DNA from: a phage
Direction: 5' to 3' (one strand)
Sequence record: PZ496580.1
Length of the DNA: 64,000 bases
Under the pieces are notes generated by a model. The model had not been told where the DNA came from, did no database searches, and saw only the letters and a program-made list of their open reading frames with translations. Below are positions 11,926 to 57,017 of the stretch, in pieces (positions within the stretch are counted from its first letter, which is position 1; each line of letters starts with the position of its first letter). The position numbers were made by a program, and so were the translations under genes.

Positions 11926-11959
11926 AATATATTCCTCAATGTTTTGTCTTGATGGGAGT

Positions 11960-11988
11960 ATCTTACTACTCCCTTAATCCGGTGTCAA
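11960..11988 (-). promoter_or_regulatory. sigma70-type early promoter cassette (TTGACA-N17-TAAGAT) with inverted repeat GGGAGTA-N6-TACTCCC over the -10
   Basis: Plus-strand tgtcaa at 11983-11988; palindrome at 11954-11973. Confidence 0.6.
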
Positions 11989-12433: not shown

Positions 12434-12462
12434 GTGATTCTCCTTTTGTTTGGTATGGGAGT

Positions 12463-12491
12463 ATGTTACTACTCCCTTATCTTTACGTCAA
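12463..12491 (-). promoter_or_regulatory. Early promoter cassette (TTGACG-N17-TAACAT) with GGGAGTA-N6-TACTCCC palindrome
   Basis: Same module as 11960..11988; palindrome at 12457-12476. Confidence 0.55.
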
Positions 12492-13449: not shown

Positions 13450-13480
13450 CTTTGATTCTCCTTTCGTTTGGTGTGGGAGT

Positions 13481-13509
13481 ATGTTACTACTCCCATTATT
13501 CAGTGTCAA
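13481..13509 (-). promoter_or_regulatory. Early promoter cassette (TTGACA-N17-TAACAT) with GGGAGTA-N6-TACTCCC palindrome
   Basis: Plus tgtcaa at 13504-13509; palindrome at 13475-13494. Confidence 0.55.
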
Positions 13510-29838: not shown

Positions 29839-30474
29839 TCAGGCGAACGTAGAAAGCAAATGTTTCGTTTCTTTCAGTTGTCGTTCAAGATCTTTTCGTT
29901 TCTCTTTAAGTTGCATTTTAGCATTATTTCGCTGTTTTTCAACATCTTTATCAATATGCTTAGTCCAATTATCAATATCAGAATAAGTTGGCATACCCAA
30001 TTCTAGACCTAATGCGGTTGGATACAGGGTAACAGTCCATAGACCGCTAATCTTCTTAAACAGGTCTGGGTTTAGTGTACTACCTACATCTTCCGGTGTC
30101 AACTCTTTTTCTTCTTTCAGTGGTGGGATCTCGTCATATGGTTCCAGTGCATTTACTTTAATATCAGATACCTCATCAAAGAATCCGCGTACATCCGCAG
30201 GAAATACACAAGCAATTTCCCAACCGTGATCACGCAGAGAAGTAATATTTTTCACTCCCCCACCATGTGTGATGATTGATGTGACATTGCCATCAAGGTC
30301 CACCGAATTTACGAGAAATGGCTTATCGTCTGTCAGATCATTATAAAACTGTGCTTCGGCTGTAGTCATCTCCAGAAACAGATCTCGGATCGGACGACCA
30401 TCAGGTGCGTTACCTTCCTTGAGAGTATAAAAACGACTTACGATCCATTTTGGCGGTAAAGCATTAGCGATCAT
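29839..30474 (-). CDS. Hypothetical protein (211 aa)
   Basis: ORF between 41 and 61. Confidence 0.5.
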   Translation of the reverse strand: MIANALPPKWIVSRFYTLKEGNAPDGRPIRDLFLEMTTAEAQFYNDLTDDKPFLVNSVDLDGNVTSIITHGGGVKNITSLRDHGWEIACVFPADVRGFFDEVSDIKVNALEPYDEIPPLKEEKELTPEDVGSTLNPDLFKKISGLWTVTLYPTALGLELGMPTYSDIDNWTKHIDKDVEKQRNNAKMQLKEKRKDLERQLKETKHLLSTFA

Positions 30475-45966: not shown

Positions 45967-47436
45967 CTATTCCCCATTACCATTATACTTTCTTTGCTTA
46001 GTTATCCACACTCTAACCATCTCTACAGATTCGCCGTCAGACGGATCAAGAGTTTTTCCTTTTTTCTTCATGCGGTACTTAAATCCGTTAAATCTTGCAT
46101 TCTCTTGCTCGTTAAAGTCGAACATCTTTTTAAATGATTTTCGCCCTTTACGCTCACCGCATTCTAGAGGAATCATTCGGTCTGTTATTACATTGGCATT
46201 AGGTAGAAACGTTTTTAGATAATCTACCAACGCCCAATCAGGAACATATAGATTAACATTCTCCTTGCTCTCGTTGTCTCTCAGGTTACAACGCAAACAT
46301 AATTGAAATGCTGGTTCCAGATAATCAGACACATGACGCGCTTTCAAAAACTCGTTTGTTGGGAGATCGCAACTATTAGCAAGACCTTTTAAAATATCAA
46401 TCTCCCATCGTTGAGGGTTAAAGCTGAACATCACAGCAACATTTTTATGATGAATGTAAGAGTTAAGACCATAAGATCCGTAAGGTATCCGCTCACCAAT
46501 ACCATTTGTGCACGCTTCTCGGTCCCGATTCACGGTATAAATGAAGTCATCACCACATTCATTTTTAACCATATCAACAAGACGTTCAAAGGTATTGTTT
46601 GTTTCTGACTGGTGACGCGACCATCGTTCAGAGTCCGTCATAAGGATGATATTAACTCTATCTGTATTTTTATACTCTTTGAAATATAGTCTGGATTCTA
46701 GCGCACTCGGAACAAAATCACAATTTGCATAGTATCGTAGATACTTCCCACTATATGTATCAAAGAGATTTGCACATGCTATCGTAACCTTTTTAAAGTC
46801 TCCCCACGTACCGTGTTTGTTATCGTTCAAGAAAACAATTTTCGACCCATTCTTCCGGTGGCCTTCGTTATGTTTTACCATAACGTTGATTTTCTTCTCT
46901 AATAACGCCTCATAAAGCCCTCTAAGAGAAGAATCGATCATATCAGTACCATCCTTTGCACTTTCTATCTTTTCTTTGATAGCGGCCTTCTCAGAGTCTT
47001 TTAGAACTAAGTTCTGTAGGCATTCCGATTCGTCGGCGATTGGTTCGCAATGCTTCGTGATAAGTTCAAGATTAGACTTAAACGGATACTCATTAAATTC
47101 AACCAGTTGAGGAACTTCATCAATGTAAAGAGCATAATCACCAAACATTTTTGAACGTTCCATATTAGATAACGCTGTATGTGTAATGAATATCACATCA
47201 GCACCATCTTTAACTGATTGCATTATCGACGCTTGCACTGTCTTAAGGCTTCTTAGTCTTGTGCTATCAATCAAGACAGCACGACCGCCCATTCTTTTAA
47301 ACTTATTGTAAGATTGTTCACTTAAAACACGAGATGGCGAAGCAATAACCGCTTTTTCTTTTGTCTCTAGGACGTGGGAAAGTATAGCATCAGTTTTCCC
47401 CGCCGCTGGCAATGCGATTAATGTTTCAATCTTCAT
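45967..47436 (-). CDS. Unassigned P-loop NTPase (489 aa) with helicase-like motifs I, Ia, II at the N-terminus
   Basis: Walker A ALPAAGKTD (res 8-16), ASPSR (Ia-like), YIDEVP (Walker B/DExx-like); Cys-containing C-terminal half without recognisable helicase motifs III-VI. Confidence 0.6.
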   Translation of the reverse strand: MKIETLIALPAAGKTDAILSHVLETKEKAVIASPSRVLSEQSYNKFKRMGGRAVLIDSTRLRSLKTVQASIMQSVKDGADVIFITHTALSNMERSKMFGDYALYIDEVPQLVEFNEYPFKSNLELITKHCEPIADESECLQNLVLKDSEKAAIKEKIESAKDGTDMIDSSLRGLYEALLEKKINVMVKHNEGHRKNGSKIVFLNDNKHGTWGDFKKVTIACANLFDTYSGKYLRYYANCDFVPSALESRLYFKEYKNTDRVNIILMTDSERWSRHQSETNNTFERLVDMVKNECGDDFIYTVNRDREACTNGIGERIPYGSYGLNSYIHHKNVAVMFSFNPQRWEIDILKGLANSCDLPTNEFLKARHVSDYLEPAFQLCLRCNLRDNESKENVNLYVPDWALVDYLKTFLPNANVITDRMIPLECGERKGRKSFKKMFDFNEQENARFNGFKYRMKKKGKTLDPSDGESVEMVRVWITKQRKYNGNGE

Positions 47437-47903: not shown

Positions 47904-48162
47904 AAATCGCCCTCAGTTCTTTATAGCCTCCAATGTGCTCGTTGTCAATGAATATCTGGGGGTATACAAATCGGAGGCTCTTTGAGTTCAGCCTCCCCGC
48001 CAGTTCTTCAATCATATCACGGTCGGGAATAATGTCAACCCCAACCTGCTTGAATACTGGTTTAAGTGTATACGGAATACCCAGATCATCCAGTAGCTTC
48101 ATTGCACTAATACAACCATAACAATGATAAGCCTCTTTCGGTATACCGTATATCTCGATCAT
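47893..48162 (-). CDS. nrdH: Glutaredoxin-like protein NrdH (89 aa)
   Basis: CYGC redox motif in glutaredoxin-like context; located between 55 and nrdG as in T4. Confidence 0.6.
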   Translation of the reverse strand: MIEIYGIPKEAYHCYGCISAMKLLDDLGIPYTLKPVFKQVGVDIIPDRDMIEELAGRLNSKSLRFVYPQIFIDNEHIGGYKELRAIYDY

Positions 48163-48665
48163 TTCTCAGCCTTTAATCTTTCTAGTTCTTCTTCCAGTTC
48201 CTTAATGCGCTTCTCGCGTTCAATATCACGTTGGATCTTAGTGGCGAATACTCGTTTAAACTGACTATAGTCATCAATTTTAAATACTTCCTCTTCACCA
48301 TATCGACGTACAGAAACTTCGTAGTTGTTGAAAAATTGTTCCAACATTGCATCAGTGGTCAGTTCTGCCGATACCACTTTAAAATGACGTTCTTCTGATT
48401 GCAAAAACCAGTTGTGCGCGTATTCCCGTACATCATCAACATTGCGGCAGGTGTATACCGTGCCATCAATTTCAATCGCAGAAACATAATCATCATCCGA
48501 TGCATGGTGATCAAATGCAATAACTTTAAATGGACGGTCGCCGATAAACTCTGCTATTGCATCATTTGCAACGCTAAAGTTTGCAAAATCTTTTCTCGTT
48601 TTCTTATCTTTCCACTGATAGGTCACGCCAGCAACAAACATATTACCATCCTCGCTCTTTACCAA
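48159..48665 (-). CDS. Paralog-family protein (168 aa): one beta-domain plus coiled-coil tail
   Basis: Shares GxTYxWKD...PFKV...IEIDGxxYT...WF motif block with ORFs at 48643-50497 and 54320-56957; C-terminal KRIKELEEELERLKAEK. Confidence 0.6.
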   Translation of the reverse strand: MVKSEDGNMFVAGVTYQWKDKKTRKDFANFSVANDAIAEFIGDRPFKVIAFDHHASDDDYVSAIEIDGTVYTCRNVDDVREYAHNWFLQSEERHFKVVSAELTTDAMLEQFFNNYEVSVRRYGEEEVFKIDDYSQFKRVFATKIQRDIEREKRIKELEEELERLKAEK

Positions 48666-49467
48666 TCAAAAATTCAACTTCACGACGTTTAATGTCTTCT
48701 TGAAGGTCTTTAATCTTCTGTCGATCTTGCATGATTTCGTCCATCTTGTCAAGTGCTGCAATGAAATCATCGAAACGTTCAAAGGTTTTACCTTCATTTG
48801 CTTCGCTAAATTTAACCATAGTCAGACCGTAACGACTACTAAACAGACGTTTCAACTGTCCAACGATCTTAGAATCAGTGGTTATAACTTCCAATTCTTC
48901 TACTTCTTGAAAGAATTTTCTATCAGAATCAATAAACCAGCTAGTTCCTTTATGGTCTCTATCTCCGGTTGCGCTCATTAGAGTATGGTCTTTACCATCA
49001 ATTTCAATTACATCAATTTGCCCACATGGACTAACATTTTTAACAGTAAAAGGTCTATAATTTATTGCTCGTGCAATAACATAATTAAGGTTAGATACGT
49101 TTTCAGCATAATGGCAGAAGTCGGTCATAGCCTTCGCATCTTTCCAAGTATAAGTTTTACCAACTTCCCATTTCTGGGGAACTTCTTCAACTTCACGAAA
49201 GAATTTTCTATCGAATGGACTAAAGAAATATGTTGCAGTCCAAATGTCTTTTCCTGTAGCAGTTTTCGCCGTATGATAAACACCGTCTAGCTCTATTGCA
49301 TTAATCCAACCGTTACCCTCGATCTCGATGATGGTAAATGGCTTGTCACCAATAGCTGCACTAATATCGCTGTTAAGTGGAGAAAGAACACCTTCTCCGT
49401 TAGTAATAAACTCAGTTTTAGCGTTTTCATCTTTCCAAGTGTAAGTTTTACCAATTTCCCATTTCAT
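48643..49467 (-). CDS. Paralog-family protein (274 aa): two tandem domains plus helical tail
   Basis: KWEIGKTYTWKD and KWEVGKTYTWKD each begin a ~95-aa repeat ending in DRKFF(R/Q)EVEE. Confidence 0.6.
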   Translation of the reverse strand: MKWEIGKTYTWKDENAKTEFITNGEGVLSPLNSDISAAIGDKPFTIIEIEGNGWINAIELDGVYHTAKTATGKDIWTATYFFSPFDRKFFREVEEVPQKWEVGKTYTWKDAKAMTDFCHYAENVSNLNYVIARAINYRPFTVKNVSPCGQIDVIEIDGKDHTLMSATGDRDHKGTSWFIDSDRKFFQEVEELEVITTDSKIVGQLKRLFSSRYGLTMVKFSEANEGKTFERFDDFIAALDKMDEIMQDRQKIKDLQEDIKRREVEFLIGKERGW

Positions 49468-49479
49468 AATATATTCCCC

Positions 49480-49959
49480 TTAACCGATTTTATCAAGTTC
49501 GTTTAATGCTTTCTCTGCTTCCTGTATAGCTTGCACCCTTTCCGGCATTTTGTCAAGAAAATCTTTCAACTCTTCAAAACTGGAGATATGACGCAAGGCA
49601 TTAGCACCGATAGCCGCATGTGATTTGCATTCAAAGCGAATTTTATAATTATCCATCGCCAACTTGAGAAGATCAATTAGTTTAGATTCTTCTGGAATAA
49701 TAATTTCTTCAAATCTGCTACGGTCGTGATCCAGAAACCAACAAGATAGACCTACATCGGTTGAACTCATATAAGTTCCATCATGAAGATATACAGATCG
49801 CACGTATCCTTTTTTCGCATCAACCGACGCAACTTTAAACGGTAATCTCAGATATTTCAAATAATCAACATCATACCATTTAAAAAATTGGTTTGCATCT
49901 TTTACATCTTTCCACGCATAGGTCTTACCAGCTTCCCATTTCATAATATCATCTCTCAT
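49480..49959 (-). CDS. Paralog-family protein (159 aa)
   Basis: KWEAGKTYAWKD...PFKV...; C-terminal LKDFLDKMP tail motif. Confidence 0.6.
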   Translation of the reverse strand: MRDDIMKWEAGKTYAWKDVKDANQFFKWYDVDYLKYLRLPFKVASVDAKKGYVRSVYLHDGTYMSSTDVGLSCWFLDHDRSRFEEIIIPEESKLIDLLKLAMDNYKIRFECKSHAAIGANALRHISSFEELKDFLDKMPERVQAIQEAEKALNELDKIG

Positions 49960-50497
49960 TTTTGATACGTGATTCTAATTGGATCATACGGTCGCGCGTT
50001 TGCTTGTATTCGCGGATAGCACCGATACGGCTAGGCATACCATTTAGAACGCTCTTAATACCTTCTAGGGTAGTAATTTTAGCAATGCTATTATGTAACC
50101 CCATCTTATCGATTAACTGAATATCGTAGGCTTCCATAAGCAGACCCAGACGTTCTAAGGTTAAATCTTGTTCTTTATCTTCTTCCTTTTCTTCCGGTTC
50201 TGGGATTTCTTTGTTAATAGTAGCTTCGGTAAAGAAACGACGCTCACCTGCCCAAAACCACACACCGGAAAAGCCAATAGGGGATTCTTTTAACGTCATA
50301 GAGTCGTAACCACTGCCGATAATAGTAATTTCTCTAACATCACCATCATCGTCAATGTCTTCTACCCTAAACGGGCGACCAGCCAACAAGTCCACAATAC
50401 ATCTGTTAATAGACGACGAAAATTTAGTCAGTTCGGCTTTCGACGCTTCGCATTCAATCTTGTAAGTTTTACCAACTTCCCATTCCATAATAATCAC
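49949..50497 (-). CDS. Paralog-family protein (182 aa)
   Basis: EWEVGKTYKIE...RPFRVEDID...; Glu/Lys-rich linker and helical tail. Confidence 0.6.
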   Translation of the reverse strand: MIIMEWEVGKTYKIECEASKAELTKFSSSINRCIVDLLAGRPFRVEDIDDDGDVREITIIGSGYDSMTLKESPIGFSGVWFWAGERRFFTEATINKEIPEPEEKEEDKEQDLTLERLGLLMEAYDIQLIDKMGLHNSIAKITTLEGIKSVLNGMPSRIGAIREYKQTRDRMIQLESRIKNER

Positions 50498-50498
50498 C

Positions 50499-51008
50499 TC
50501 AAATAATTTTCACTGGAATACTATTAACAATCTTGTATTGTACTTGATTGTCGGACCCCCGCCACGGCTTCTTCGTTGGCATATCTTTAATATAACGCCC
50601 ATCGATGAACATGTCAACCGATTCTACAATTTTTCTTTGCTCATCATTCAATTGGTCAAGGGTATAACCAGACCATAGCCAAATATCTTTATTTGGCATC
50701 CATGATTTTACTTCATCGATGATCCGCTGTACACCCTTTAAATTGCGTTTATACAGTGGATCGCCACCTAAGAATGTTAGCCCCTGAATAAAATCAGGTC
50801 TAAGCAGATCCAGAATCAATCCCATTGTATCATCAGTGAATGGTTCCCCGTTCTTAGGATTGAGTAGGCTAGCATTAAAGCAACCATCACATGCGTGTGA
50901 ACATCCGGTAACGTAAAGGGAGACTCTCACTCCCTCACCGTTAACCATATCACAATCTTTAATATCGGCATAGCGTAGTTTGCCGTATGTATCAGAACTC
51001 ATATTCAA
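50499..51008 (-). CDS. nrdG: Anaerobic ribonucleotide reductase activating protein NrdG (radical SAM, 169 aa)
   Basis: CSHACDGC (Cx3Cx2C) cluster motif, GGDP, C-terminal KKPWRGSDNQ similar to remembered T4 NrdG. Confidence 0.85.
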   Translation of the reverse strand: MNMSSDTYGKLRYADIKDCDMVNGEGVRVSLYVTGCSHACDGCFNASLLNPKNGEPFTDDTMGLILDLLRPDFIQGLTFLGGDPLYKRNLKGVQRIIDEVKSWMPNKDIWLWSGYTLDQLNDEQRKIVESVDMFIDGRYIKDMPTKKPWRGSDNQVQYKIVNSIPVKII

Positions 51009-51144
51009 TTACCCCAAACTCGTTTACAATCTGCGCTTTATAGTATCCACCGCGAGATGCTAATAGATAAGCCGGGCTTAGGTATTCGTATTCACGGATT
51101 TCTACTTGTGCGTTTTCAGTTTCCCAAATCAGTAAAGTCCACAT
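50992..51144 (-). CDS. Small hypothetical protein (50 aa from ATG at 51144; track start 51219)
   Basis: ATG at 51144 preceded by AGGAG; the track start would overlap the promoter at 51187..51215. Confidence 0.4.
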   Translation of the reverse strand: MWTLLIWETENAQVEIREYEYLSPAYLLASRGGYYKAQIVNEFGVIEYEF

Positions 51145-51186
51145 ATTTGATTCTCCTGTAAAGTTGTATCTCGTCTTGATGAATAT

Positions 51187-51215
51187 AGTATAGGGGATCT
51201 CTCGATCCCCGTCAA
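51187..51215 (-). promoter_or_regulatory. Early promoter (TTGACG-N17-TATACT) with GGGGATC-TCTC-GATCCCC palindrome filling the spacer
   Basis: Plus cgtcaa at 51210-51215; palindrome at 51193-51210. Confidence 0.55.
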
Positions 51216-51219
51216 GCAT

Positions 51220-51540
51220 TTATTTTAAATTTTTTCGAATGTATTCAGACCATTCCTTCCCTGTCAGTTCGGTCCCATTCTGGAAACTGAAATATTCATA
51301 CGGCATAGAGTCAAGATAAAACAGGATCATACATCGCGCCATATAATACCAATCACGATTAAAGTAAACTACGTTATCACCAGTACCATCAGCACCTTTA
51401 TCATAACCATCGCGGGTACGGGCGACCCATTGAATAGTATCATTTTTCTCACGGATAGTAACAGGTTCCCAATATCCAGCACCATCCAGCATGACCACAC
51501 GAACAAGTAAGGAAATATTGGCCTTTTGATTTGTTGTCAT
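51220..51540 (-). CDS. Hypothetical protein (106 aa from ATG at 51540), possibly the 3' part of a frameshifted gene
   Basis: Overlaps the upstream ORF by ~90 nt in another frame; no SD before any candidate ATG. Confidence 0.4.
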   Translation of the reverse strand: MTTNQKANISLLVRVVMLDGAGYWEPVTIREKNDTIQWVARTRDGYDKGADGTGDNVVYFNRDWYYMARCMILFYLDSMPYEYFSFQNGTELTGKEWSEYIRKNLK

Positions 51541-51769
51541 CCCATTCACGATGGATTGGTTCGATCTCGTGAAACAGTGCTAAACAATCATGATTATGCA
51601 ACACTGGCTTACCATCAATCAATGCATGGAATGTATACAAACGACCAGTAGACAAATAGCTGTCCTCACGCTCAACCAGTTCAATAGCAATCTTTTTAGC
51701 TCGTTCCTTGTGTCGTTGTGCTTTACGCTTACGGTTTAATGATTTCATATTCACCTCACACATTATCAA
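51449..51769 (-). CDS. Hypothetical basic protein (106 aa), possibly the 5' part of a frameshifted gene
   Basis: C-terminal 20 codons (CSCGHAGWCWILGTCYYP) look like out-of-frame read-through; 10-bp tandem repeat at 51474-51493. Confidence 0.4.
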   Translation of the reverse strand: MIMCEVNMKSLNRKRKAQRHKERAKKIAIELVEREDSYLSTGRLYTFHALIDGKPVLHNHDCLALFHEIEPIHREWDDNKSKGQYFLTCSCGHAGWCWILGTCYYP

Positions 51770-52311
51770 AGGTCGCGATATAGTACATTATGAAAATGAG
51801 AACTTGCATTACCAATATTGTAGATAATAAATTCTTCATCCGGCGCTTGCGCTACAAATTGAGTATGAGCAACCGCTACAACCTTAAAAATACGATCCGT
51901 GATCTTGTGTTTAATTTCTGTTCCTACTTCCATAGGAACATATTCATGTGTTTCTGTTTCAGTCGCAAAACAGCCATCTTCTTCATAAGCACGAACAAAT
52001 CGATCGCAATCAGTACGCTTAACAAATTCAAGAGTATATAATTCTCGTGAATTGTCGGTATAAACCAACACAGAATTATTCTGATAGCGAATCACATACA
52101 GGTTATTATCATCGTCAATTACGCAAAAGCTACGGATTTGTGTTCCTTCGCCTTTACTCCAGCAGATATTAACCACCGTTCCTCTAATAAAAAAACTTTC
52201 CTTTAAATTAAAACTAGCCAATGTGCTAGCGTGCATTTTAACAACAACACCATCGCCAATTTCCAGTTTACGAAGTTTAACTTCTTTGCTCAGCACACAA
52301 AACATCATCAT
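51766..52311 (-). CDS. Hypothetical protein (181 aa)
   Basis: ORF downstream of the nrdD terminator/promoter. Confidence 0.5.
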   Translation of the reverse strand: MMMFCVLSKEVKLRKLEIGDGVVVKMHASTLASFNLKESFFIRGTVVNICWSKGEGTQIRSFCVIDDDNNLYVIRYQNNSVLVYTDNSRELYTLEFVKRTDCDRFVRAYEEDGCFATETETHEYVPMEVGTEIKHKITDRIFKVVAVAHTQFVAQAPDEEFIIYNIGNASSHFHNVLYRDL

Positions 52312-52340
52312 GTTGTCCTCTCGTTGTTTTCGATGTGAGC

Positions 52341-52368
52341 ATTATACATTAGCTAATCAGGTTGTCAA
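52341..52368 (-). promoter_or_regulatory. sigma70 consensus promoter (TTGACA-N16-TATAAT)
   Basis: Plus tgtcaa at 52363-52368 and attata at 52341-52346. Confidence 0.6.
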
Positions 52369-52373
52369 CACCT

Positions 52374-52406
52374 AAAAACGAAAAAGCCGACCCTTTCGGA
52401 TCGGCT
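52374..52406 (-). terminator. Rho-independent terminator after nrdD
   Basis: Minus AGCCGATCC-GAAA-GGGTCGGCT hairpin followed by TTTTTCGTTTTT. Confidence 0.7.
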
Positions 52407-52411
52407 GAAAA

Positions 52412-54274
52412 TTACATGTGCTTAACGCGGTTTACCATCTCGGAATGTTTCCCGTGGTTAAATGGACGCAGATCAACAGATCCAAGATATCCACTAACGC
52501 GACGGATAACATTCATTTTTTCCAGATTATCATTTCCGCAATCAGGGCAAACAAAACCAGACTCGGTCGCTCTCATTTCCTTAGTAGATCCGCATACATG
52601 ACACACATCAGAAGGGGTATTAACACCGAAGTAGTGCAATTTATCCATTGCATAGTCTACTACAGTTTCAAGCCCTTTAATGTTGTTTTTCATGTCTGGA
52701 AACTCAACATAAGAGATCATGCCACCGGACGCCAGCCAGTGATAGTCTTTCTCAAAGTCGATTTTCTCAAACGGTGTGACTTTCCGGTCTACGTCAAGGT
52801 GGAATGAGTTGGTGTACCAGTCTTTATCGGTAGCACCCTTAACAATACCAAATTGCTCTCGGTCCAGTCGATTAAATCGATAGCAAAGGCTTTCGGCTGG
52901 CGTACCGTAAAGACTAAACCCAAGTCCGGTTTCGTCCTTCCATTTTTCAGTATAATGACGCAAGATCTTAAGAATATGTTTACCGTATCGCTGCGCATCT
53001 TCCGAATCAAACGGATGAACACCAAACAGGACGCTCAATACCTCATGTAAACCAATATACCCAAGAGAGATACTAGCGCGACCATCTTTCAACACTTCCA
53101 AAATTTCATCGTTTTGATGAATACGGAAAAATGCACCTTCGGTATACAGTACAGGAGCAACATTGGCTTTAGCGCCTTTTAAAGCGTCTACGCGACTCAT
53201 GAGCGCATCAAAACAAATAGGCATACGATTAGCTAGCTCTTGTTCGAATAGCTCAATTCTGCGCATTACAGACGCTTTACCAGCACGACGCGCGGCAATA
53301 AGGGCAATACGCGGAAGATTCAGAGTAACAACACCTAAGTTATTACGTCCGTCTAATACTTCTTCGCCTTTCTCATTATGCCACACACCCAGGAAGCTAC
53401 GACAACCCATCGGGCTAACCGGAACACTAGATCCAGTGATACTACGGTTATTCTTCGCAGAGATATAATCAGGGTAAAGACGCTTACTAGAACATTCCAA
53501 TGCAAGTTGTTTAATGTCGTAGTTCGGATCTTCCGGTTTAAGGTTTAATCCTTCTTCTAAGAACATCACCAGCTTAGGAAACACCGGAGTTATACCATCT
53601 TTACCTAAACCTTTAGTTCGAACTTTCAGGATCGCTTTCTGAATCAGTTTTTCTTCCCAGCTAGTACCCATACCAAATGTTAAAGTCACAAAAGGTGTTT
53701 GACCGTTGGTGGAGAACAAAGTGTTGATTTCATATTCCAACGCCTGATACCCGTCTAGCGTTTCTTTTTCTGTCTTCTCTTGTGCATAGAGAGTATCAGC
53801 TTTGATTCCGTAGGTTTCGGCATCAGCAAGGTGTTTATGATATGTTTTCTCAACATACGGTGCTAACACCTGATCGATGTTTGCAATTGTGGTCCCGCCA
53901 TATTGATGACTTGCCACCTGTGCGATAATTTGAGCGGTTACAGCACAAGCAACGCCGATTGATTTCGGACTTTCGATTTGTGCGCTACCCAATTTAAAAC
54001 CATTCTCTAGCATGTCTTTTAGATTAACAAGACAGCAGTTAGTAAACGGCATAGCGGGTGCATAATCCATATCATGATAATGAATATCACCGTCTACATG
54101 CGCTTTATAGATGTGCTCAGGTAACACGGTTTTAGCAATCTGTTTAGACACAGCGCCAGCAATCAGATCTCGACGTGTCGGGAATGTTCGCGCGTCTTTG
54201 TTCGCGTTCTCTTTGCTTACTTCGTTTTCTTTACCCGTTGCGATCTCTGTAATGTCTTTGATTAGTTTTTCCAT
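52412..54274 (-). CDS. nrdD: Anaerobic ribonucleoside-triphosphate reductase NrdD (620 aa), uninterrupted
   Basis: Class III RNR size; C-terminal zinc ribbon CHVCGSTKEMRATESGFVCPDCG and glycyl-radical segment RVSGYLGS. Confidence 0.9.
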   Translation of the reverse strand: MEKLIKDITEIATGKENEVSKENANKDARTFPTRRDLIAGAVSKQIAKTVLPEHIYKAHVDGDIHYHDMDYAPAMPFTNCCLVNLKDMLENGFKLGSAQIESPKSIGVACAVTAQIIAQVASHQYGGTTIANIDQVLAPYVEKTYHKHLADAETYGIKADTLYAQEKTEKETLDGYQALEYEINTLFSTNGQTPFVTLTFGMGTSWEEKLIQKAILKVRTKGLGKDGITPVFPKLVMFLEEGLNLKPEDPNYDIKQLALECSSKRLYPDYISAKNNRSITGSSVPVSPMGCRSFLGVWHNEKGEEVLDGRNNLGVVTLNLPRIALIAARRAGKASVMRRIELFEQELANRMPICFDALMSRVDALKGAKANVAPVLYTEGAFFRIHQNDEILEVLKDGRASISLGYIGLHEVLSVLFGVHPFDSEDAQRYGKHILKILRHYTEKWKDETGLGFSLYGTPAESLCYRFNRLDREQFGIVKGATDKDWYTNSFHLDVDRKVTPFEKIDFEKDYHWLASGGMISYVEFPDMKNNIKGLETVVDYAMDKLHYFGVNTPSDVCHVCGSTKEMRATESGFVCPDCGNDNLEKMNVIRRVSGYLGSVDLRPFNHGKHSEMVNRVKHM

Positions 54275-54284
54275 TGTATCACCT

Positions 54285-54310
54285 ATGAAAAAGCGGGATT
54301 TTCTCCCGCT
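54285..54310 (-). terminator. Terminator-like hairpin 11 nt upstream of the nrdD start codon
   Basis: Minus AGCGGGAGAAAATCCCGCT followed by TTTTTCA, then SD AGGTGA. Confidence 0.5.
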
Positions 54311-54319
54311 CGTTGATAG

Positions 54320-54814
54320 TTATTTTACCAGTTCTGCTAATTCTTTTTCTTTAGCTTCTAGTTCAGCTTTAAGCTGTTTAATCTCTTGTCGCTTCTTATT
54401 AGCGGCTTCTTGCTTACTATTTCGGATAACCTGATCTAGATACAACTCCCAATCCTGAATATTTTTGATAATGTAACCGTCAACATTAATTGGTCGGAGA
54501 TTCAGTACAGCTTCCAGTTTAGTTGCAAAAACTTTAATTGCTGGGGTGAAGTATTCATATTCGTTATCTTCAAACCAATAACCTAGACTTGCATTATCAA
54601 TACGAAGACGAAGTTCAAGATCAAGGTCTTTATCTTCGGTGTATAGGTCTTTTACACCCCCCATCGAACCAACAACAACTTTAAAACGAATTTTATCAAC
54701 ACCACCAAACACATCAGTAAGGATACCAGCAATTGAGCTATTAGCGCAAGATTGGTCGCTGAATGCGTCAAGGTTTTCTTTAGTTACAGTATACCAAACA
54801 TCTTGTTTCCACAT
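54320..54814 (-). CDS. Paralog-family protein (164 aa)
   Basis: IRFKVVVGSMGGVKDLYTED... beta-domain and C-terminal coiled coil (KQLKAELEAKEKELAELVK). Confidence 0.55.
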   Translation of the reverse strand: MWKQDVWYTVTKENLDAFSDQSCANSSIAGILTDVFGGVDKIRFKVVVGSMGGVKDLYTEDKDLDLELRLRIDNASLGYWFEDNEYEYFTPAIKVFATKLEAVLNLRPINVDGYIIKNIQDWELYLDQVIRNSKQEAANKKRQEIKQLKAELEAKEKELAELVK

Positions 54815-54844
54815 AATATAATCCTCTCGTTGTTAAGTGGGAGT

Positions 54845-54872
54845 ATTATAGCATACTCCCTTTGCATGTCAA
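54845..54872 (-). promoter_or_regulatory. Early promoter cassette (TTGACA-N16-TATAAT) with GGGAGTAT-N6-ATACTCCC palindrome
   Basis: Palindrome at 54838-54859 overlaps the -10. Confidence 0.6.
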
Positions 54873-56047
54873 GCACGAACTTTTTTCTTTACTGCTTTCA
54901 CCTTCTGGCGAATTGCTCGAATCTCTTCGATCTCTTTTTCAGTCTCTTTAACAATTTCTTTGCGATTCTGAATATCTGTATCGAGATTATCATCAAGTTT
55001 AGGCAGCATGTCAATCAAGAACTTTTTAAAGTCTTTCAGGTTTCGGATAACAGCACCTTCACCCATTACCGCCACCCCTACACCATCCGGTAGATCACCA
55101 AACAGTTTAACCAGTTCAGACAGATGATCATGATCTTCTAGTGCTTCTTCCGGTTCAGATGGTAGTTCAACAAAGTAATAGCGTTCATCATTGCTGATCA
55201 GGTGATACCAGCAAAGCCCAAAAGATTTAGGAGTATATTCTACACCATCAACTTCAACCGCGTCAACACTTCCGAAAGAATCTACTTTAGTTACCTTAAA
55301 TCCGTGTTCCAGCTTTTGAACAATTTCAATAACATGACTGGATACGGTTTCAGTGTTAAACCAATGAGGCAAATTATGTGGATTTGGTTTGTAGCGTTCG
55401 CCCACTTTAAATCTCTGACCACGCTCTTGCATACGGACATATTCAACTCGCGTTATTTCCGCGAAGTATTCAAATTCGCTACCGTCAAACACACAAGCCC
55501 ATTGATCACAAAAACGATCCGCCTTAACAGTTTCACCTTTCGCGGTGATCATGGTAGCCGATCCGTGAAATTCTTCTTCAACTAAAAAGCCATATTCGAC
55601 AAAATCAACAAGTTTCATGGCTTCTTTGTGCTCTGGATCATGCTCTCCCCAGAATCGCTTAAATTCTTGCAAACCTTCCGGGGTAAACGAATAACATTTA
55701 CCTTTTTCAAAGTAAGTCGGCATTGCATCCTCTTTCTTGTTCATCGCTTCGTATGTCTCTTTTGAGATACGTTTAAAGTATTTGCGCTCATTGTGCATAA
55801 TCATAGTAGCCCAATAATCCACAATATCATTAGCGGAATAAACTACATCTCCAGCTTCAATAGTAATAACATGACCGTGGTCATCTTTTTCTAATACTTT
55901 AAAGCCCTTTTCTACGATTTCAGCAACCCGAATATGACCACGGCGCGAAGCATCAGTCAGAATAATTGAATAGCGAGAAAAGTCTAGAAACTCATCTTTA
56001 CCGCCTTCACGGAATGCATAGTAATGCCCTTCAAAGAATTTAGCCAT
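54869..56047 (-). CDS. Paralog-family protein (392 aa): three tandem domains plus LKDFKKFL helical tail
   Basis: Three repeats each containing GF(K/L)V...G.V..IE..G..Y motif and ERKYFKRI-type end. Confidence 0.6.
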   Translation of the reverse strand: MAKFFEGHYYAFREGGKDEFLDFSRYSIILTDASRRGHIRVAEIVEKGFKVLEKDDHGHVITIEAGDVVYSANDIVDYWATMIMHNERKYFKRISKETYEAMNKKEDAMPTYFEKGKCYSFTPEGLQEFKRFWGEHDPEHKEAMKLVDFVEYGFLVEEEFHGSATMITAKGETVKADRFCDQWACVFDGSEFEYFAEITRVEYVRMQERGQRFKVGERYKPNPHNLPHWFNTETVSSHVIEIVQKLEHGFKVTKVDSFGSVDAVEVDGVEYTPKSFGLCWYHLISNDERYYFVELPSEPEEALEDHDHLSELVKLFGDLPDGVGVAVMGEGAVIRNLKDFKKFLIDMLPKLDDNLDTDIQNRKEIVKETEKEIEEIRAIRQKVKAVKKKVRA

Positions 56048-56078
56048 AATATAATCCTCTCGTTGTTTAGATGGGAGT

Positions 56079-56107
56079 ATCTTACTACTCCCGTTTCATC
56101 ATGTCAA
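56079..56107 (-). promoter_or_regulatory. Early promoter cassette (TTGACA-N17-TAAGAT) with GGGAGTA-N6-TACTCCC palindrome
   Basis: Plus tgtcaa at 56102-56107; palindrome at 56074-56093. Confidence 0.6.
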
Positions 56108-56688
56108 GCGTTAAATGACTTTTGGATCTCTTTCAGTTCAGCTACTTTATCGGCGCTATACTTTGCTTGATGTTCCATGCGCTTAAGCTCACCTTTGATA
56201 TAGGTTTCTAGCTTAGGTTTATTCTCAATCAGAAAATCTTTCAAGTCATCGGCATTTTTAAAGTATAGCTGATTATCAAAGCTAAAATCTTCCAGCGTCA
56301 ATGATACCAAAGAAGACTTCGCAAACAAGTTAATCAGATCTTCCAGAGATTCTTCTTTCTTAACTGGTTTCATTTCTTCAAACTGCTTTTTAGTGATGCG
56401 TTTAAAGTATTTGCGCTCGCTTGCATCAATCAGAATCGATGCACCCTCATAATCATGAGTTTCTACCAAATACACATTACCCATAACATTAACGGTCAGA
56501 ACTTTAAAGCCATTGCGAAGCACATCATGCAGGAATTTGTTATGTTGCGGGTATAGTTTAACAAATTCAACAGCAGCATTAGCACTACGGAAAGTGTAGT
56601 AACGGCCTCTTTCAAAAACAGCATCATTGGAAGATTTAGCCGGATATACTTTGTATGTTTTCTGCACCATAATATAATCCTCTATCAT
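56104..56688 (-). CDS. Paralog-family protein (194 aa)
   Basis: NGFKVLTVNVMGNVYLVETHDYEG...ERKYFKRITKKQFEEM; tail LKDFLIENKPKLE. Confidence 0.6.
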   Translation of the reverse strand: MIEDYIMVQKTYKVYPAKSSNDAVFERGRYYTFRSANAAVEFVKLYPQHNKFLHDVLRNGFKVLTVNVMGNVYLVETHDYEGASILIDASERKYFKRITKKQFEEMKPVKKEESLEDLINLFAKSSLVSLTLEDFSFDNQLYFKNADDLKDFLIENKPKLETYIKGELKRMEHQAKYSADKVAELKEIQKSFNA

Positions 56689-56957
56689 TTCACTAATTGA
56701 ACAGCACGGAACAGAATGCGATCACATGGAAGTAGCATAAAGTTCCAGCTCGGATCAAAGTCTTTAGCGGTGTAGGGTTTCCCATCAACAGAGATTTCAC
56801 TTACATAACCAATGGGCGACACTTTAAGAACAGTAAATCCATTCTTGATGACTTCGTAGGTATCTTTCAGACCTTCGTAGTCGTCCTCTAAGAAGTCTTT
56901 ACGTGCTTGCTCAGATTTAAAAACATAGGCCACACCAGCTTTAAACATCTTACGCAT
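56685..56957 (-). CDS. Paralog-family protein (90 aa, single domain)
   Basis: NGFTVLKVSPIGYVSEISVDGKPYTAKDF. Confidence 0.55.
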   Translation of the reverse strand: MRKMFKAGVAYVFKSEQARKDFLEDDYEGLKDTYEVIKNGFTVLKVSPIGYVSEISVDGKPYTAKDFDPSWNFMLLPCDRILFRAVQLVK

Positions 56958-56988
56958 TGTTGATTCTCCTTCTTGATTAGATGGGAGT

Positions 56989-57017
56989 ATTTTACTACTC
57001 CCATTTCATGTTGTCAA
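56989..57017 (-). promoter_or_regulatory. Early promoter cassette (TTGACA-N17-TAAAAT) with GGGAGTA-N6-TACTCCC palindrome
   Basis: Plus tgtcaa at 57012-57017; palindrome at 56984-57003. Confidence 0.6.

Follow-up and report, generated by a model that had tools for sequence, protein, structure and literature searches.

The goF gene of phage T4 has posed a puzzle since the 1970s, as its mutants rescue the phage on rho-defective hosts while the role of the wild-type protein has stayed obscure, and it was only in 2025 that the family to which it belongs was recognised. GoF is an abundant early protein, and two changes in it, D25Y and G84R, permit T4 growth on certain rho mutant hosts; GoF(D25Y) stabilises, i.e., gives a longer half-life to, RNA carrying the 5′ untranslated region of gene 41, an effect that is post-transcriptional and independent of Hfq (Kim et al. 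2025, PMC12152347). In that study GoF and Frd.2 together with MotB.1, the last on a separate branch, are described as a family with an 'LSm-like' (SH3-like) barrel, and the T4 members are dispensable. A 21-bp in-frame deletion in goF also arose in the course of T4 evolution, with no phenotype found (PNAS 2022). The other described system of relevance is the PeSL element of phages RB49 and phi1, a strong early promoter with a terminator-like stem-loop, which is concentrated in hyperplastic regions, has been shown to mediate modular shuffling, and has the nrdD locus named among the plastic spots associated with it (Arbiol et al. 2010, PMC2839356). Both are pertinent to sequence record PZ496580.1, of which a stretch of 64,000 nucleotides (the window) was analysed. 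The eight genes at its positions 48,159 to 56,957 (the span), here called A to H, are almost certainly an expansion, specific to Krischvirus, of the GoF/Frd.2 family of early proteins, and a ninth member, X, lies elsewhere in the window.

Nine genes of one barrel family

The source phage is a Krischvirus, i.e., an RB49/phi1-like relative of T4 within the Straboviridae, and the span is 95–97% identical to the genomes of FL15, Phi1 and RB49. All eight open reading frames of the span are present on the minus strand (Table 1), along which the order from upstream to downstream is dam, nrdC, gene 49, H, G, F, E, nrdD, four small open reading frames, nrdG, D, C, B, A and nrdH. In the RefSeq entry for RB49 six of the eight are 'hypothetical protein', the other two being F, 'frd.2 / goF mRNA metabolism modulator', where 'frd.2' is the name given by the original RB49 annotators, and G, 'goF mRNA metabolism modulator'.

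Are these genes related to each other? In an all-against-all BLASTP comparison, E-values from 1e-12 to 1e-4 connect A, B, C, D, F, G and H, and internal repeats come up in B (two) and F (three). A domain profile that was seeded with eight copies and iterated over the window's 643 stop-to-stop open reading frames yielded 10 strong copies in seven of them, and with profiles from which one gene at a time was left out, the same seven genes were each recovered from among the 643 at E ≤ 3e-11, the best unrelated frame standing at ≥ 0.009. A preliminary description of this DNA, made from its letters without database searches, had proposed that the eight frames share one domain, occurring once, twice or three times per protein, and had quoted a consensus motif for it. 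The motif corresponds to the conserved columns of the profile (G5, Y8, F19, (P/G)F38, G51 and F87), the copy numbers are borne out, with two in B, three in F and one in each of the others, and aligning the copies and building a profile, a check set beforehand, found the frames to be related to each other and not unrelated.

Gene E is the member for which that proposal holds only by less direct routes. By window sequence alone it is inseparable from noise (0.007 against 0.011 with its leave-one-out profile). Comparison of E and 16 of its orthologues with the domain alignment gave, in hhalign, a probability of 92.7% and an E-value of 4e-7 over the whole domain, with the motif at the same positions; E also matches phrog_3710, a profile that itself matches T4 GoF at 8e-12, and in Foldseek its predicted structure retrieves from a viral structure library the orthologues of A and B together with the 'GoF' of phage VR7. 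On profile–profile comparison and predicted fold, E is a divergent member of the family. The further proposal of at least twelve domain copies in the span did not survive the count, which is 11, and the twelfth is that of X. The latter's E-value was 8e-6 before it entered the profile, 2.5e-6 when it was left out and 5e-14 with the converged profile, and its layout of barrel plus tail is that of the rest of the family. The total is nine genes with 12 domain copies, in contrast to three single-domain genes in T4, and a scan of the complete RB49 genome found the same nine family genes and no others. The possibility that X is the counterpart of T4 gp61.2, or of any other T4 protein, was rejected as phmmer gave no support for it. 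X adjoins the gene 41 helicase, and the family's sole molecular phenotype, that of GoF(D25Y), concerns the leader of gene 41 mRNA; this is probably a coincidence.

What, then, is the T4 counterpart of the family? Among 2,387 six-frame T4 open reading frames, a profile made from the window only placed GoF first (E 1.1e-8, over the full-length domain), Frd.2 second (1.3e-3) and MotB.1 third (0.044); the values with the converged profile (mixed set) were 3.5e-17, 1.2e-10 and 0.013, respectively. GoF and Frd.2 are both in phrog_622, which matches seven of the eight open reading frames of the span (A, B, C, D, F, G and H), and phrog_622, phrog_3710 and phrog_5347 match both GoF and Krischvirus proteins. 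MotB.1, with its borderline E-values and its different PHROG, phrog_2333, is a distant third T4 member. The 141-residue GoF (ComC-alpha) has an N-terminal barrel that is homologous along its full length to the Krischvirus domain, K-F-E-x-x-K-x-Y, PFK[VI], G, W and FF-E-V being motifs common to the two. GoF and the Krischvirus proteins are also alike in being products of genes of T4-like phages, probably early ones in Krischvirus too, and in having a linker followed by a short strand-plus-helix C-terminal part, but GoF has a single barrel and is without the long C-terminal helix. Frd.2, of 128 residues, is in the same family by profile as well as by phrog_622, and is likewise single-domain and without a helical tail. 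In T4 goF adjoins gene 39 and frd.2 is beside frd, whereas there is no family member at the former position in this phage or in the frd-32 locus of RB49.

The statement in the preliminary description that the domain is not one recognised from T4 is contradicted by these comparisons, by the family's publication in 2025 (PMC12152347) and by the goF labels that RefSeq gives to F and G. That description had also held that clear homology to a well-characterised T4 family would tell against it. The homology to a T4 family is there, but the family in question has been studied genetically and is not well characterised mechanistically.

For A, AlphaFold2 with an alignment of 40 sequences gave a model whose mean predicted local distance difference test score (pLDDT) is 82.9, with values above 90 in the barrel. 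The latter comprises a strand (residues 14–18), helices 21–28 and 32–41, strands 46–53, 59–66 and 69–71, two short helices and a strand at 95–100, after which the tail has a helix (104–114), a hairpin (117–120/127–130) and a long helix (133–167). The model of E (pLDDT 87.7) has its elements in the same order, β1-α-α-β2-β3-...-β5 and then helix, hairpin and long helix. On these models the domain would be a five-stranded SH3-like ('LSm-like') barrel of 85–95 residues with two helices inserted after strand 1, which agrees with the published fold assignment, Hfq not being singled out. The arrangement found, an N-terminal bent five-stranded antiparallel β-sheet of SH3/LSm-like type, a linker and a variable C-terminal domain, is that of the GoF family. 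Cellular SH3-like barrels, e.g., those of FeoA, the C-terminal domain of DtxR/IdeR, Tudor, and the RNA-polymerase-interacting domains of CarD/CdnL and UvrD/PcrA, resemble the phage barrels in fold only, a likeness that does not establish membership. The identity is 4–12%, which amounts to no sequence similarity, all scores are below 5, and the two-helix insert is found in the phage family but not in these cellular barrels. In a profile search of the Protein Data Bank by sequence no match fell below E 0.1, those returned being calmodulin noise.

In eight of the nine proteins the barrel, or barrels, would be followed by a short helix-hairpin module and an amphipathic helix of 35–45 residues. What had been described as an LKDFL-type helix plus a Lys/Glu-rich coiled coil is, in the models of A and E, one continuous long helix, so that a helical tail stands, other than for H which lacks it, and its separation into two elements does not. 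The heptad signal is modest (p < 0.08 in five of eight tails), and a coiled coil is thus plausible without being demonstrated. Pairwise alignments (A-B, B-C, C-D and F-G) and both models show the tails to be colinear.

Table 1. Family genes and PeSL cassettes of the window, with positions numbered from its first nucleotide
Feature	RB49 counterpart	Position	Strand	Barrels and other parts	Matches
Gene A	RB49p048 orthologue	48159..48665	minus	one GoF-type barrel, nt 48369-48641; alpha/beta module; long C-terminal helix (predicted)	leave-one-out profile E 3e-12; phrog_5347, phrog_622, phrog_3710
Gene B	RB49p049 orthologue	48643..49467	minus	two tandem barrels, nt 49186-49464 and 48898-49173; then tail	phrog_622 E 3e-19, two stretches
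Gene C	RB49p050 orthologue	49480..49959	minus	one barrel, nt 49699-49941; tail	leave-one-out profile E 6e-13
Gene D	RB49p051 orthologue	49949..50497	minus	one barrel, nt 50219-50485; acidic linker; tail	leave-one-out profile E 1e-12; phrog_622 E 2e-10
Gene E	RB49p057 orthologue	54320..54814	minus	divergent barrel, nt 54539-54814; tail	hhalign; phrog_3710 E 5e-4; AlphaFold2 fold; Foldseek
Gene F	RB49p058	54869..56047	minus	three tandem barrels, nt 55763-56041, 55451-55714 and 55163-55414; tail	phrog_8944 and phrog_622, three stretches
Gene G	RB49p059	56104..56688	minus	N-terminal extension; one barrel, nt 56392-56619; tail	leave-one-out profile E 3e-11
Gene H	RB49p060 orthologue	56685..56957	minus	barrel only, nt 56697-56948; 90 residues; no tail	leave-one-out profile E 1e-13; phrog_16115 and phrog_622
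Gene X	RB49p021 ('Dc2')	29839..30474	minus	directly downstream of gene 41 helicase; one barrel, nt 30166-30450; long linker; tail	
PeSL cassette before E		54839..54872	minus	TTGACA-16-TATAAT (12 of 12, with TG); GGGAGTA...TACTCCC stem-loop, as before H	
PeSL cassette before F		56073..56107	minus	TTGACA-17-TAAGAT; GGGAGTA...TACTCCC stem-loop, as before H	
PeSL cassette before H		56983..57017	minus	TTGACA-17-TAAAAT; GGGAGTA...TACTCCC stem-loop over the -10 box	

How widely the family is spread depends on the type of search. Scans of all nine proteins against Pfam, NCBIfam and PADLOC gave only sub-threshold chance matches, and the matches in word-indexed homologue searches (17, 16 and 47) were close orthologues only, none of them with a Pfam domain. 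An exhaustive profile search of 1.84 billion representative proteins gave only 54 clusters at E ≤ 1e-3, comprising one-, two- or three-domain proteins with several kinds of C-terminus. Six of these (P0045, P0056, P0061, P0069, P0080 and P0085; 777–1721 residues) were set aside as probably spurious since they match only a stretch of about 30 residues; the matches of these long proteins are to domain profile positions of about 30–70 only, in 4–9 repeated stretches, and probably reflect an unrelated β-hairpin repeat. The structure search that had been proposed beforehand was run with the models of A and E, and with that of A it gave, at E ≤ 1e-3, 68 viral matches, all uncharacterised and nearly all from T4-like phages, several of which have more than one. 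The hosts of these T4-like phages are Proteus, Serratia, Aeromonas, Morganella, Enterobacter, Cronobacter, Pectobacterium, Edwardsiella and Citrobacter, and a small number of other large myoviruses are also represented; the model of A matches Dc2 of phage ECD7 as well. At the BLAST level gene B is confined to about 60 Krischvirus records, in most of which it has the two-domain form of 274 residues and in some, e.g., phages E26 and AV108 (protein P0037), a one-domain form of 182 residues, which points to a domain having recently been gained or lost when the tandem repeats recombined.

Promoter cassettes, allele exchange and the neighbourhood

E, F and H are each preceded by a near-identical cassette that consists of TTGACA, a spacer of 16–17 nt, a −10 box within a GGGAGTA...TACTCCC inverted repeat, a Shine-Dalgarno sequence and ATG. 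Searching with a variable-gap pattern (GGGAGTA-N6-8-TACTCCC) found the stem-loop six times in the window and not at all in 100 shuffles, three of the six being those before E, F and H. A sigma70 consensus with a stem-loop overlapping the −10 box, and then a Shine-Dalgarno sequence and start codon, constitutes one of the five PeSL classes, and no difference between the three cassettes and the published elements was found (PMC2839356); each lies between genes, combines a promoter of sigma70 consensus with a stable stem-loop, and precedes an open reading frame in a plastic region. The other three stem-loops (GGGAGTA-N6-TACTCCC at 11954–11973, 12457–12476 and 13475–13494) are in a block of small early open reading frames downstream of the holin gene, which is another hyperplastic region.

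It had been supposed that each gene of the span has its own promoter cassette, and this is so only for E, F and H. No PeSL cassette precedes A, B, C, D or G. A, C and G adjoin or overlap their upstream neighbours (the offset being −23 to +14 nt, according to which start codon is taken), for B there is no more than a −10-like box that touches the start codon, and the promoter-like site for D is a generic one inside nrdG. Likely starts are the ATG at 48641 for A, going by the RB49 annotation, which would give a protein of 160 residues, the ATG at 49944 for C and that at 56670 for G. A strong terminator follows nrdD at 52385–52406, and from these signals the transcription units would be H-G, F, E-nrdD and nrdG-D-C-B-A (from upstream).

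The flanking genes have 98.5–100% protein identity to their RB49 counterparts, as against 69.6% for A, 76.8% for G, 91.2% for D, 93.2% for F, 94.4% for H, 97.8% for B, 98.2% for E and 99.4% for C. Does this mean that the family is diversifying under positive selection? The ratio of nonsynonymous to synonymous substitution (dN/dS, by the Nei–Gojobori method, against RB49) is 0.21 for A, 0.22 for G, 0.17 for D, 0.21 for F, 0.10 for H, 0.14 for B and 0.02 for both C and X; E has 0.66, from only seven substitutions, and core genes have 0.02–0.05. What stands out is dS itself, 0.92 for A and 0.62 for G compared to 0.05–0.13 for the flanks, and values that are 6–10 times those of the flanks mean that old alleles have entered by recombination. 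What was replaced is the barrel in A and mainly the hairpin region of the tail in G. The divergent stretches are seen as old recombined alleles under relaxed purifying selection, with positive selection not being shown at gene-wide resolution. The earlier characterisation of a locally expanded paralogous family in a plastic and probably early region is upheld, with nine genes, PeSL promoters and the divergence of A and G, and 'diversifying', in so far as it implies positive selection, is not. As to how the family grew, tandem gene duplication and duplication of domains within genes would have taken place in the plastic nrdH-nrdG-nrdD-49 region, recombination there being promoted by the PeSL promoter and stem-loop cassettes, and alleles of some members would later have been exchanged between phages.

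Several neighbouring genes merit comment in their own right. The minus-strand open reading frames at 51449–51769 and 51220–51549 are the N- and C-terminal halves of phrog_8242 and of a single RB49 gene, RB49p054, split by a one-base insertion near 51483 (GGATGGTGC, as against GGAT-GTGC in RB49), so that the gene is a pseudogene by frameshift unless the extra base is a sequencing error. Between gene 55 and nrdH, where T4 has only small 55.x open reading frames, a 489-residue minus-strand frame at 45967–47436 (RB49p044, 'hypothetical') has a match to the N-terminal domain of DEAD/DEAH-box helicases with 27.3 bits, the Pfam cut-off being 26. Just downstream of nrdD, the 181-residue minus-strand frame at 51766–52311 belongs to phrog_14838 and has a perfect sigma70 promoter (52341–52368, 12 of 12) right after the nrdD terminator; it has two halves that look β-rich, but with a family-profile E-value of about 1 it is not a member.

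Proposed function of the proteins and the alternatives

The explanation that we favour, and which taken whole is moderately probable, is that these genes are an expansion of the GoF/Frd.2 family whose products modulate mRNA fate early in infection. Its functional part, that the family members are non-essential early modulators of mRNA fate, draws by analogy on the genetics of T4 goF only and is tentative, somewhat short of probable. The proteins would probably be made early from sigma70-type promoters and be dispensable in the laboratory. After transcription they would adjust what becomes of phage or host mRNA, with one face of the barrel binding either a component of host RNA termination or decay, or RNA itself. 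Tandem barrels and possible oligomerisation via the C-terminal helix would provide more binding sites per particle, i.e., multivalency, and different paralogues may have different targets.

A comparison of the residues changed in the goF suppressors bears on this. The column of G84 has K or R in 67 of 134 family copies, this being the K/R of the motif E-R-K-Y-F, already quoted in the preliminary description, where T4 GoF has E-A-G-F-F; residues 83–84 of the T4 protein (locus L002, 5842–6267) are without the basic pair, and G84R restores a basic residue. The column of D25 has F, Y or W in six of the 12 copies here. Both suppressor changes consequently shift GoF towards residues that are common in its relatives, and the 'gain of function' of the literature may be a step back to the family consensus. 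As a lead, and not as proof, these columns suggest that the activity which GoF gains by D25Y or G84R is one that the paralogues have. A bolder version, in which the Krischvirus paralogues are the naturally 'active' form of the goF suppressor state, nine multivalent, target-specific proteins that shield phage mRNA from Rho-dependent termination or decay, is decidedly unlikely. Were it true, the phage would encode a system of post-transcriptional control in which the number of paralogues sets its breadth, and tandem barrels and the oligomerising helix its valency.

A number of points weigh against a role in mRNA fate. The wild-type forms of GoF and MotB.1 did little in the reporter assay, and AlphaFold3 gave no confident GoF multimers (PMC12152347). 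The column of D25 varies across the wider family. Ten of the 12 barrels are net acidic (pI 4.3–6.2), with which direct RNA binding fits poorly. Oligomerisation would be by way of a tail whose long predicted helix has the modest heptad signal mentioned above, and the profile for that tail is weak in leave-one-out searches (E 0.006–1.9), the C-terminal module not being significantly similar across all members; as the profile also fails to detect the C-termini of T4 GoF and Frd.2, the tail is not claimed to be a family-wide conserved domain. Early expression, though probable, is read from promoter sequence. Finally, we know of no wild-type member of the family that has a known function.

If not mRNA fate, what else might the proteins act on? 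They could be anti-defence or host-takeover effectors, as the preliminary description had it, each paralogue neutralising a different host protein, of immunity or of housekeeping, or serving as its decoy, in which case expansion and allele exchange would reflect selection by varied hosts. The location of the genes in a hyperplastic region with strong early PeSL promoters fits well with this, as does the dispensability of the family in T4, the large allelic variation among close phages (A at 70% and G at 77%, with flanks at ≥ 98.5%) and the variation of gene B in domain copy number; SH3/Tudor-like barrels are, moreover, typical protein-binding modules, and the domains are acidic. However, every gene has dN/dS below 1, with values of about 0.2 where divergence is high, C, X, B and E are 98–99.5% identical between the window and RB49 and so are not diversifying, PADLOC, NCBIfam and Pfam have no relevant match, and no anti-defence phenotype is reported for any family member in the literature searched. 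Such a role is unlikely, and it is compatible with modulation of mRNA fate, as the target could be an RNA-directed defence. A role as true Hfq-like RNA chaperones would be closer to the name 'LSm-like'. The barrels would then form LSm-type rings that bind RNA directly, and one, two or three barrels with an oligomerising helix could conceivably yield sixfold assemblies, e.g., three barrels in each of two chains, or two in each of three, held together by the C-terminal helix. Hfq is indeed among the structural neighbours of GoF, and GoF(D25Y) does stabilise RNA, but its effect does not require Hfq, wild-type GoF is inactive, and no confident GoF hexamers were obtained with AlphaFold3 (Kim et al., PMC12152347). 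The Sm fold, an N-terminal helix and a strongly bent five-stranded sheet, with its Sm1/Sm2 motifs and ring assembly, was not found in these proteins: LSm proteins have the single N-terminal helix, whereas the Krischvirus barrels have two helices between strands 1 and 2, and the acidity of 10 of the 12 also speaks against a chaperone of this kind, which we regard as very unlikely.

Lastly, the flanking nrdG and nrdD raise the thought of accessory factors for the anaerobic ribonucleotide reductase, particularly as nrdH and gene 49 bracket eight of the nine family genes, which lie to either side of nrdG and nrdD, and as A to D, having no convincing promoter of their own except the site inside nrdG, may be co-transcribed with the latter. 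Yet the T4 members adjoin genes 39, motB and frd, not nrdD or nrdG, the ninth member follows gene 41, T4 has homing endonucleases at the same place, and the nrdD region is a known hot spot of PeSL-associated plasticity (PMC2839356). The association with nrdD and nrdG reflects where plastic DNA accumulates rather than function, and a part in nucleotide reduction is scarcely credible.

Natural variants of the goF type

Much that is relevant here has already been described, namely the barrel fold of GoF and Frd.2, the family itself and the PeSL cassettes, and in that sense the finding is incremental. What appears not to have been described is how far the family has expanded in Krischvirus, its two- and three-barrel proteins, the helical tail, and the consensus-restoring nature of the goF suppressors. 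The study of the T4 family says nothing of RB49 or Krischvirus, nor of expanded paralogues, tandem domains or coiled coils (Kim et al. 2025, PMC12152347), and that of the PeSLs nothing of a paralogous family flanked by them (Arbiol et al. 2010, PMC2839356).

For annotation, the gain is that the GoF/Frd.2 family can now take in six 'hypothetical proteins' as well as 'Dc2'. For the goF puzzle, Krischvirus has three times the genes and four times the domains of T4, the two- and three-barrel proteins among them, and so offers a richer set of natural variants with which to find the binding partner. The residue comparison also poses a concrete question: can B or F do what, in T4, only GoF(D25Y) does?

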